This document shows positions 36,499 to 41,217 of a stretch of DNA of 64,000 nt, piece after piece (position 1 is the stretch's first letter; each line of letters starts with the position of its first letter). A program made the position numbers and the translations under genes. Under the pieces are notes generated by a model. That model saw nothing but the letters and a program-made list of their open reading frames with translations, was not told the DNA's origin and did not search any database. Source of the DNA: a virus (taxonomy: Duplodnaviria; Caudoviricetes); the IMG/VR virus record IMGVR_UViG_3300021399_000100. One strand, given 5' to 3'.

Positions 36499-36528
36499 AA
36501 AAAGGTAGCACATAATACGCTACCTTTT
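36499..36528. terminator. Hairpin terminator upstream of the tRNA cluster
   Basis: AAAAGGTAGC-ACATAATAC-GCTACCTTTT. Confidence 0.65.
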
Positions 36529-36621
36529 GTTTTGTATAGGGGAATATTTTCAGAAATCGGATGATTATATAATTGAACGTAATAAGATAGTTCATGATAA
36601 TCATCATGGTTCTGTTACGAC

Positions 36622-37161
36622 GCCTTTTTAGCTCAGCTGGTAGAGCACGTGATTTGTTAAACAGATTCCGTACAATGTCATTGCTTATGGAAAAGAAACA
36701 AAAAGGTAATTTAGTTGAGTTGCAGTGCATCACTGCATTTTATGAATTAGGTTATCAAGTCAGCATTCCATACGGTGAAAATTCCAGGTATGATTTTGTA
36801 GCGGACATAGACAACAGACTTATAAGAGTTCAAGTCAAAGCATCTCATGAAGTTGATGAAAACTCTTTTCGATTCAGTTGTCAATCTGTTAAATCGAAAA
36901 GATCTGGGATTTCCAGACGTAAGTATACGAAAGATGAAATTGACTTTTTTTCAACTTTCTATAATGGTAAATGTTACTTGGTGCCAGTCGAAGAATGTTC
37001 AATATATAAAACACTTCGGACATCGGAGAGTAAAAATAACCAAATGCAAAACATAAATTTTGCAGATAGTTACGAGCTAGAAAAACAGATTGATAAAATT
37101 AAAAACCCGGAACATTGATTAACAAATCTCGGGGTCGTTGGTTCGAGTCCAACAAGAGGCT
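36622..37161 (+). tRNA. tRNA-Thr(UGU) interrupted by a 467-nt intron (36658-37124)
   Basis: 5' exon 36622-36657 (acceptor, D arm, CGTGA-TT-TGT) and 3' exon 37125-37161 (AA-TCTCG, T arm, AAGAGGC-T) join into a cloverleaf. Confidence 0.85.
36687..37118 (+). CDS. Intron-encoded PD-(D/E)XK homing endonuclease (I-Ssp6803I-like)
   Basis: KG...E......LG..VSIPYG.N.RYD.V.D......RVQVK...Y...EIDFF...YLVPV; alternative start at 36675. Confidence 0.85.
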   Translation: MEKKQKGNLVELQCITAFYELGYQVSIPYGENSRYDFVADIDNRLIRVQVKASHEVDENSFRFSCQSVKSKRSGISRRKYTKDEIDFFSTFYNGKCYLVPVEECSIYKTLRTSESKNNQMQNINFADSYELEKQIDKIKNPEH

Positions 37162-37200
37162 CATAAGAAATATAGATCTTTGACATGTTAAATTATATAT

Positions 37201-37272
37201 AGTCCTTTCGTATAGCGGCTAGTACACAAGATTTTGATTCTTGGAGGAGGCGTTCGAATCGCTTAGGGACTA
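37201..37272 (+). tRNA. tRNA-Gln(UUG)
   Basis: Cloverleaf; CAAGA-TT-TTG-AT-TCTTG. Confidence 0.9.
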
Positions 37273-37287
37273 CAAAATAAATTATAT

Positions 37288-37359
37288 AGTCCTTTCGTAT
37301 AGCGGCTAGTACACAAGATTCTGACTCTTGGAGGAGGCGTTCGAATCGCTTAGGGACTA
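37288..37359 (+). tRNA. tRNA-Gln(CUG)
   Basis: Near-identical duplicate; CAAGA-TT-CTG-AC-TCTTG. Confidence 0.9.
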
Positions 37360-37374
37360 CAAAACAATAATGTA

Positions 37375-37957: not shown

Positions 37958-38041
37958 GGATTGTTAGTTCAGTCGGTTAGAACGCATGCATCACACACAC
38001 AAAACATGCATGAGACACGGGTTCAAACCCCGTACTTTCCT
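37958..38041 (+). tRNA. tRNA-like RNA with an 18-nt AC-rich anticodon loop (undetermined; Asp-like body)
   Basis: D and T arms intact; CATGC-ATCACACACACAAAACAT-GCATG. Confidence 0.7.
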
Positions 38042-38063
38042 CAGGTCTATTTTTAGATTATAA

Positions 38064-40727: not shown

Positions 40728-40807
40728 ATGGCGTTAGACAAATTGGTAAAGTCACACCCTTTATTCTAGGTTGGGTGAATTTGAAGGTTCGAATCCTTCA
40801 CGCCGTA
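40728..40807 (+). tRNA. tRNA-like RNA with a 13-nt anticodon loop (undetermined)
   Basis: All four stems intact; CACCC-TTTATTCTAGGTT-GGGTG. Confidence 0.7.
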
Positions 40808-40832
40808 CAAATTTTAGATAATATATGGAAAT

Positions 40833-41070: not shown

Positions 41071-41217
41071 AGCGAAGTAGCTCAATAGGTAGAGCACAGT
41101 AATTCATATACGGGAAGATTGCCGTTCGAACATCGCGCGCGAAGTAGTTCAACGCCATTCAGCGAGAGCACCGTATCCATATAACTGAAGATGACAGTTC
41201 GAATCTGTTCTTCGCGC
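41071..41217 (+). tRNA. Nested/tandem tRNA-like structure (outer tRNA with a tRNA-derived insert)
   Basis: Two GCGAAGTAG 5' ends and two TTCGAA loops, with cross-paired anticodon stems. Confidence 0.65.

Follow-up and report, generated by a model that had tools for sequence, protein, structure and literature searches.

The stretch of DNA analysed here (hereafter referred to as the window; 64,000 nucleotides of the IMG/VR virus record IMGVR_UViG_3300021399_000100) comes from a rumen phage and carries a phage tRNA array, with 17–19 tRNA genes at 37.2–42.2 kb as counted with ARAGORN and Rfam. The two programs found no intact tRNA at 36622–37161; with its intron option, ARAGORN reported a tRNA-Thr(UGU) gene containing a 467-nt intron. 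When the two exons (Table 1) are joined, they form a 73-nt tRNA-Thr(UGU) with all four cloverleaf arms, whose single mismatch, U29.U41, is shared by many intron-less tRNA-Thr genes. By scanning for the joined-exon sequence, we found an IMG/VR contig from a sister phage (L116), the flanks of which are 97.5% identical to those of the window over 2621 bp upstream and 96% identical over 2757 bp downstream. Its tRNA-Thr gene is uninterrupted and identical to the window exons at 73 of 73 bases. Thus, the insert corresponds exactly to 36658–37124, and neither duplication nor loss of target sequence accompanied it. The cloverleaf and this empty site confirm the first-pass annotation, which had placed a 467-nt insert between tRNA positions 36 and 37 and had noted that it ends in A (base 37124) rather than in omega-G. 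The comparison with an intron-less allele, which the annotation had proposed, fixed both boundaries unambiguously, as L116 reads GATTTGT/AATCTC across the joint.

The insert consists almost entirely of an ORF, and its assignment to the I-Ssp6803I type of PD-(D/E)XK endonuclease in the first-pass annotation was borne out. The product matched PF11645 (PDDEXK_5) with 99.3 bits (E 2.5e-28; cut-off 26.1) over model positions 1–137 of 138, matched PHROG 5018, and could be aligned to I-Ssp6803I (PDB 2OST; E 4e-7) such that the D...QxK motifs coincide (RYDFVADI...RVQVK with SYDLVFDV...KVQVK). Residues D40, Q53 and K55 are invariant across 33 homologues. The annotation had offered two starts, 36675 and 36687. 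The second is more likely, since the homologues start at the equivalent methionine and one strain variant (36675 A>T) lacks the upstream ATG; a start at 36687 leaves 29 nt of non-coding insert sequence 5′ and 6 nt 3′ of the ORF. The statement that this endonuclease family normally resides in group I introns of bacterial tRNA genes proved to be overstated: there is one characterised case, the tRNA-fMet gene of Synechocystis, and the relatives that we found in phages are ribozyme-less inserts in some cases and free-standing genes in the others.

Table 1. Features at the split tRNA-Thr gene (positions in the window)
Feature	Coordinates	Strand	Evidence
Promoter-like site TTGAAC-17-GATAAT, 20 nt 5′ of the tRNA	36573..36601	+	weak consensus match only
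5′ exon, tRNA-Thr positions 1–36; anticodon UGU at 36655–36657	36622..36657	+	identical to uninterrupted gene of L116
Rod helix 1, 5′ strand: anticodon stem 36648–52, loop 32–33, anticodon 36655–57, intron +1 to +8	36648..36665	+	cofold, covariation
Mobile insert, 467 nt, between tRNA positions 36 and 37	36658..37124	+	L116 empty site; family inserts at same position
Rod helix 2, 5′ strand TTCCG	36666..36670	+	cofold
PD-(D/E)XK homing-endonuclease ORF, 143 aa; alternative ATG 36675; stop TGA 37116–37118 inside rod	36687..37118	+	
Rod helix 2, 3′ strand CGGAA	37108..37112	+	cofold
CATTG motif (CA unpaired, TTG paired), then helix 1 3′ strand; last ACA pairs with anticodon	37113..37124	+	cofold, covariation
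3′ exon, tRNA positions 37–73: A37, A38, anticodon stem 3′ strand, T arm, acceptor, discriminator	37125..37161	+	

Promoter-like sites were not enriched (3 found against 6.1 expected, not significant), and RNA contigs begin upstream of the one listed in Table 1. Elsewhere in the array, the tandem tRNA-Gln(UUG) and tRNA-Gln(CUG) genes at 37201–37360 differ by few bases and have a single Gln gene as their counterpart in L116 (an 87-nt indel), so that the pair represents a recent duplication with a change of anticodon. Three tRNA-like genes (37958–38042, 40728–40808 and 41071–41217) have oversized or odd anticodon regions; ARAGORN reports 'introns' of 11 nt and 72 nt among them, and Rfam gives tRNA matches of 84 and 147 nt.

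A family of inserts at one tRNA position

Homologues of the protein are abundant in metagenomes (436 at E<=1e-5, mostly 55–84% identical). A profile search recovered 49 IMG/VR loci, in nearly all of which the ORF lies inside a split tRNA as part of an insert of 454–488 nt; a few inserts are longer (652–804 nt). The Enterococcus phage EFP01 has a member in a tRNA-Asn gene (KY549443, 105242–105777), at a site for which its record annotates no tRNA. With the register of the split tRNAs taken from their D and T arms, cloverleaf criteria gave 23–25 out of 25 for almost all of the distinct split genes parsed, and all are split between positions 36 and 37. The 30 distinct junctions (including those of L058 and L060) represent tRNAs for Thr, Asn, Lys, Met and Ile with six anticodons (UGU, AGU, GUU, UUU, CAU and UAU). 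In every one of them the anticodon ends in U and is followed by A37 and A38; the Met-type members have the context GGCTCAT/AACC. The ORFs are intact in all of the approximately 30 distinct copies, and the cloverleaves are near-perfect in nearly all. Full-text literature searches turned up no description of such ribozyme-less endonuclease inserts in split tRNAs. The element represents a new kind of homing-endonuclease insert that is widespread in phage tRNA genes and specialised for the position between 36 and 37 of those whose anticodon ends in U. PF11645 homologues in Pectobacterium phage My1 and Vibrio phage phi-pp2 are free-standing and adjoin intact tRNAs, and an association with tRNA processing is thus a habit of the protein family.

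A complete phage genome of 190 kb (G003; IMGVR_UViG_3300045988_112927) has four PF11645 inserts of different clades within 121438–131887, which split its tRNA-Met gene, its sole tRNA-Thr(UGU) gene and both of its (different) tRNA-Lys(UUU) genes, while 35 intact tRNAs are kept. In the whole carrier genomes G001, G002, G003 and EFP01, as well as within the 64-kb window, no gene other than the split one serves the anticodon concerned, and the tRNAs split by the inserts read common codons.

Several observations were made in passing on these loci. The ORFs of L017 (1423–1983), L005 (1440–1976), L004 (1454–1988) and L025 (1435–2330) contain in-frame TAG codons at positions where relatives have Gln, in L017 even at the Gln of the catalytic QxK. 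These phages appear, from the sequence, to read TAG as Gln, with the ORFs intact. We had considered the seemingly truncated ORFs of L017, L005 and L004 as a sign of long residence in intact tRNAs, an idea that we discarded because the 'stops' are these TAG codons. In L007 (1440–1989) and L045 (1435–2184), the insert lies in tRNAs with a UGU anticodon arm and a long, class II-like variable arm, which is unusual for tRNA-Thr. The EFP01 tRNA cluster is adjoined by a ROOL RNA (265 bits; L001:2442–3028), and another array by a phage-encoded tmRNA (102 bits; L025:3114–3394). A tRNA-like gene with good acceptor and T arms and a conserved middle of about 50 nt (GACAGCAAT...TTGCATGAGGAGCACG) recurs in phage arrays (L005:556–679, L012:589–705, L052:755–871 and L051:6–130); Rfam sees in it a weak tRNA of 38–50 bits.

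Comparison of insert and exon sequences revealed that their histories disagree. The intron closest to that of the window, in L058, is 88% identical at the nucleotide level and is flanked by exons only 73% identical, whereas the intron of L060 is 76% identical and its exons 92%. Among strains in rumen metagenomes, we counted 1 difference in 540 nt of exons plus insert, as opposed to 8 in 279 nt just upstream. This uniformity and the disagreement of histories, together with the empty site of L116, point to active homing into diverged tRNA-Thr genes, and the spread of the insert by DNA homing between tRNA-Thr genes is well supported by these alignments. At the level of sequence, the comparisons show a currently mobile, ribozyme-less homing-endonuclease element whose entry into an intact tRNA-Thr(UGU) gene was precise. 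Its target without the intron (GAGCACGTGATTTGTAATCTCG.GGTCG) was found in 66 viral contigs and in more than 119 from metagenomes, among them bacterial contigs of Mb size; targets are thus plentiful, and the host has a copy of nearly the same tRNA. Because the exons are recent acquisitions, their intactness does not require that the insert be spliced out.

The RNA rod at the insert ends and the search for a ribozyme

Cofolding predicted that the insert ends and the anticodon arm form one imperfect rod of about 25 bp (36648–36670 with 37108–37131). Two helices described in the first-pass annotation, a perfect one of 10 bp (36651–60 with 37119–28) and a second one (36666–70 with 37108–12), were both recovered as parts of this single structure. 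The rods of the family share a common order: the anticodon stem, the pairs 32:38 and 33:37, the anticodon paired with the last three intron bases, 5–8 further pairs, an internal loop that is small and conserved, a helix of 4–8 bp and then the ORF. Helix 2 occupies the same place in the relatives with other base pairs (CTCAGT with ACTGAG, CCTTAG with CTAAGG). In the internal loop of the Thr-type members, an A of the 5′ strand faces CA of the 3′ strand, and CATTG lies 12 nt before the 3′ junction in nearly all of them (ATATG in L017); the Asn/Lys-type loop has YUGAC opposite CUGAUG, and the Met-type loop is different again.

We examined covariation over the 30 junctions. Base pairs were present in 190 of 210 cells, compared with 120 +/- 7.5 in 2000 shuffles (maximum 147), a figure that is not to be read as a probability because the sequences are related. 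The pairs 34:-1, 35:-2, +1:-4, +2:-5 and +3:-6 each occur as 3–5 standard pair types, and it was observed directly that all six anticodons are matched by their complements at the intron 3′ end. Outside the anticodon stem, we counted 52 G.U pairs, and A.C is seen solely as the C32.A38 opposition that belongs to the tRNA itself; this asymmetry indicates selection on the sense RNA rather than on DNA. Positions 32, 33, 37 and 38 (Y32, U33, A37 and A38) never covary, and C32.A38 weakens the rod in 16 of the 30 junctions. The predicted rod, which buries the anticodon, is thereby shown to be a selected RNA structure and not a product of chance. A DNA-level inverted repeat, such as transposon-like ends or a substrate for cruciform resolution, was rejected both on the G.U versus A.C asymmetry and because cuts at the two ends would leave non-complementary overhangs. 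The loop of the Asn/Lys-type rods (L032–L043 and L044:2174–2716) permits tandem sheared G.A pairs and resembles box D and box C; a k-turn was nevertheless dismissed for it, as the bulge lengths are off the consensus.

The first-pass annotation had also argued that there is no room for a ribozyme outside the ORF, and the 29 + 6 nt of non-coding sequence and our searches agree with it. A permissive Rfam scan of 36500–37300 returned no intron or ribozyme family, and no RF00028 match even at E<=10. Neither did the inserts of 20 related loci contain any such family at gathering thresholds, nor those of three long-insert loci any RNA family at E<=1. As a positive control, the same search detected a group I intron in a phage tRNA-Leu(UAA) gene (L019:360–578; 61.5 bits), which represents a genuine 227-nt RF00028 intron at L019:335–648. 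The last intron base complements base 34 throughout the family, as A, C, G or T, and is not omega-G, and U36, present in 30 of the 30 junctions, is paired with an A at intron position -3 rather than with G. The long inserts of L045, L048 and L025, which we considered as ribozyme-bearing intermediates, turned out to have longer ORFs with a C-terminal extension and no RNA family match. These results show that the insert, as far as its sequence can tell, is unable to splice itself out in the manner of a group I intron.

An RNA that splices or cleaves itself might still be hidden within the coding sequence or the rod. The 5′ exon always ends in U, as it does at group I 5′ splice sites, and the related I-Ssp6803I sits in a 655-nt group I intron with a 150-aa ORF. 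Against this stand the absence of Rfam ribozymes at the locus and in the inserts of the 23 related loci with a control that scored 61.5 bits, the identity of the last base and the U36–A pair just described, and the mere 35 nt of non-coding sequence; the 652–804-nt inserts owe their length to longer ORFs. In addition, the ORFs are only 45–60% identical and the rod motifs differ between clades. We regard a ribozyme of this kind as very improbable.

The fate of the split tRNA

The insert ORF region is transcribed in metatranscriptomes of two studies. One RNA contig of 499 nt spans both junctions in unspliced form without a mismatch, which means that insert and exons are co-transcribed, and this unspliced form is the only phage-exact RNA to span the junctions. 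Two RNA and two DNA runs gave no report of a joint across the insert; stretches without RNA cover are uninformative on splicing. Contigs reading GATTTGT/AATCTC, with depths of 1000–19000x, exist in both the DNA and the RNA data, and two of their letters are not those of the phage exon. Phage-specific exon bases lie in the acceptor (GCCTTTT/AAGAGGC) and the T stem (GTTGG/CCAAC). The contigs cannot be taken for the spliced phage tRNA; being equally present in DNA and carrying the 2 mismatches, they represent ordinary tRNA-Thr genes of other organisms. The first-pass annotation had left two outcomes, protein-dependent cutting and ligation or inactivation of the tRNA by a selfish insert. This proved to be the right pair of options, and we lean no more than slightly towards the second.

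We give about an even chance to the reading that the tRNA is not restored, and that the insert is an unspliced selfish element whose rod serves the element itself; this estimate includes the RNase III variant described below. Loss of the phage tRNA-Thr would be tolerated because the host supplies a nearly identical one. The rod would let the acceptor, D and T arms fold, so that tRNA-processing enzymes could release the transcript from the polycistronic array. It would also hold the two termini of the endonuclease mRNA, which has no promoter of its own, together within a stable RNA shaped like a tRNA. What argues for this reading is, on the side of mobility, the precise empty site in L116, the uniformity of the insert relative to its flanks, the disagreement of exon and intron histories, and the abundance of targets and of a near-identical host tRNA. 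On the side of RNA, there are the unspliced contig and the lack of a ribozyme. The tRNA-splicing endonuclease EndA (PF01974) was absent from the 5 carrier phage genomes searched, with matches in 4 archaea as the control. As the first-pass annotation had stated, there is no bulge-helix-bulge: both junctions lie three pairs apart inside the continuous, perfect 10-bp helix, and we know of no RNA-splicing endonuclease that cuts a continuous helix of this sort. The free-standing homologues next to tRNA genes in My1 and phi-pp2 are also consistent with an unspliced insert.

An RNase III-type excision without religation, in which the rod would be cut, the endonuclease mRNA freed and the tRNA halves discarded, is a sub-case of the unspliced reading with the same outcome for the tRNA. 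An imperfect duplex of about 25 bp is long enough for RNase III, but this enzyme leaves 2-nt overhangs and its action would not explain the conserved single-stranded motifs, and we consider the variant unlikely. Bacterial rRNA intervening sequences are excised by RNase III without religation (PMC3984707).

Some features do not fit an unspliced insert well. The ORFs are intact in about 30 copies, and the cloverleaves are near-perfect in nearly all of them. Y32, U33, A37 and A38 stay constant even though C32.A38 weakens the rod in more than half of the junctions. The split gene is the sole one for its anticodon in four whole carriers and in the window, G003 has endured four inserts, and the tRNAs lost would read common codons. 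The conserved internal loop, at a fixed distance from the junctions, looks more like a recognition element than a clamp, and every complete or near-complete carrier genome checked has an RtcB or Rnl-type ligase.

The main rival is a protein-spliced tRNA intron that yields a working tRNA-Thr, a reading to which we give roughly a third of our confidence. The rod would present both junctions three base pairs apart, an endonuclease (possibly the encoded PD-(D/E)XK protein) would cut on each side of the anticodon, and an RtcB of phage or host, or an Rnl ligase together with end-healing enzymes, would reseal the anticodon loop. Without exception, the 3′ end of the intron is complementary to the anticodon, whichever of the six it is, and archaeal and eukaryal pre-tRNAs show a similar pairing of intron and anticodon. 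The pairing is maintained at the level of the sense-strand RNA, as the 52 G.U pairs and the restriction of A.C to C32.A38 indicate, and the universal bases of the tRNA loop are kept at the cost of rod stability while exons and ORFs remain intact. The split of sole genes and the four inserts in G003 also favour restoration of the tRNA. As to ligases, in a survey of carriers only, RtcB was found in EFP01 and G007, Rnl-type ligases in G002 and G008, and weaker matches in G001, G003, G004 and G006.

On the other side, the sole junction-spanning phage RNA contig is unspliced, and the spliced-looking contigs also occur in DNA and differ from the phage exon. The junctions have no bulges and the carriers no EndA homologue. 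The first-pass annotation had looked to a phage PNK and RNA ligase elsewhere in the genome; within the 64-kb window, no RNA ligase or RtcB was detected with Pfam on ten plus ten ORFs or by tblastn with five phage ligases. Recent homing accounts for the intact exons. The ligase types differ between carriers, and such ligases, whose accepted role in phages is tRNA repair, are common in tRNA-rich phages. We set aside the endonuclease as the RNA cutter, acting on a rod that mimics its DNA target, and retain it as a minor variant: the rod contains only the left half-site plus intron sequence, and the metal-dependent chemistry gives ends unsuited to RtcB, which two carrier phages encode. The boldest formulation, that tailed phages have mobile, ribozyme-less tRNA introns removed by proteins through a cut of the rod with a 3-nt stagger and resealing by RtcB or Rnl, as the first protein-dependent tRNA splicing outside archaea and eukaryotes, is put forward only tentatively.

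Significance and relation to known systems

Hundreds of members of the family occur in phages of the gut and rumen, and one in a cultured Enterococcus phage. They break the common rule that a homing endonuclease residing within a gene depends on a carrier able to splice itself. In the textbook view, bacterial and phage tRNA introns are group I ribozymes, and to our knowledge protein-dependent tRNA splicing is unknown for bacteria and phages. According to a 2014 review, introns of phages had not been observed in any tRNA gene (PMC3984707). If the split tRNA is restored, bacteria or phages own a protein-based route of tRNA splicing, which would bear on the origin of bulge-helix-bulge introns. 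If it is not, a selfish gene repeatedly destroys useful phage tRNAs and reuses the tRNA shell as the packaging of its mRNA. Under either reading, tRNA finders and annotators miss the split genes.

One of the nearest known counterparts is the group I intron in tRNA-fMet of Synechocystis PCC 6803, which encodes I-Ssp6803I (PF11645; 2OST). The two share a homologous endonuclease with the same catalytic motif, a location in a tRNA anticodon loop and, for the Met-type members, the context GGCTCAT/AACC. However, the Synechocystis intron has 655 nt with about 200 nt of ribozyme, whereas the phage insert has 35 nt of non-coding sequence, no catalytic core and no omega-G, and its ends form a rod with the anticodon in place of P1/P10. 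Bonocora and Shub (2001) reportedly found that I-Ssp6803I cuts to either side of the anticodon, with 3-nt 3′ overhangs; this stagger equals the spacing of the two junctions on the phage rod.

Free-standing endonucleases in phage tRNA clusters, such as the PF11645 genes of My1 and phi-pp2, share the protein family and the genomic niche. They lie between tRNAs, or extend a few bases into the end of one, and the tRNAs stay whole, in contrast to the insert, which lies inside the anticodon loop. T4 SegB, a free-standing homing endonuclease, spreads by cutting the tRNA-region DNA of rival phages (PMC13096335). The intervening sequences of bacterial rRNA resemble the insert as non-catalytic elements with a long closing stem in a stable RNA gene, but they are devoid of an ORF, and mobility through homing is not known for them. 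Their fragments work without religation; a tRNA cut in its anticodon loop, unlike a split rRNA, could not.

Archaeal bulge-helix-bulge introns with homing-endonuclease genes (rRNA introns, I-DmoI) are likewise ribozyme-less, and some are mobile by means of the encoded endonuclease. The introns of archaeal and eukaryal pre-tRNAs pair with the anticodon region and are removed by a protein endonuclease and an RtcB-type ligase. A bulge-helix-bulge has a 3-nt bulge at each junction, with a 4-bp helix between the two. The phage insert is without this motif, lies between positions 36 and 37 instead of 37 and 38, and resides in carriers in which no EndA was found; it also differs from archaeal introns in having bacterial hosts and a PD-(D/E)XK rather than a LAGLIDADG endonuclease. 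By analogy, intron removal in archaea and eukaryotes would be the nearest working model if the insert is spliced.
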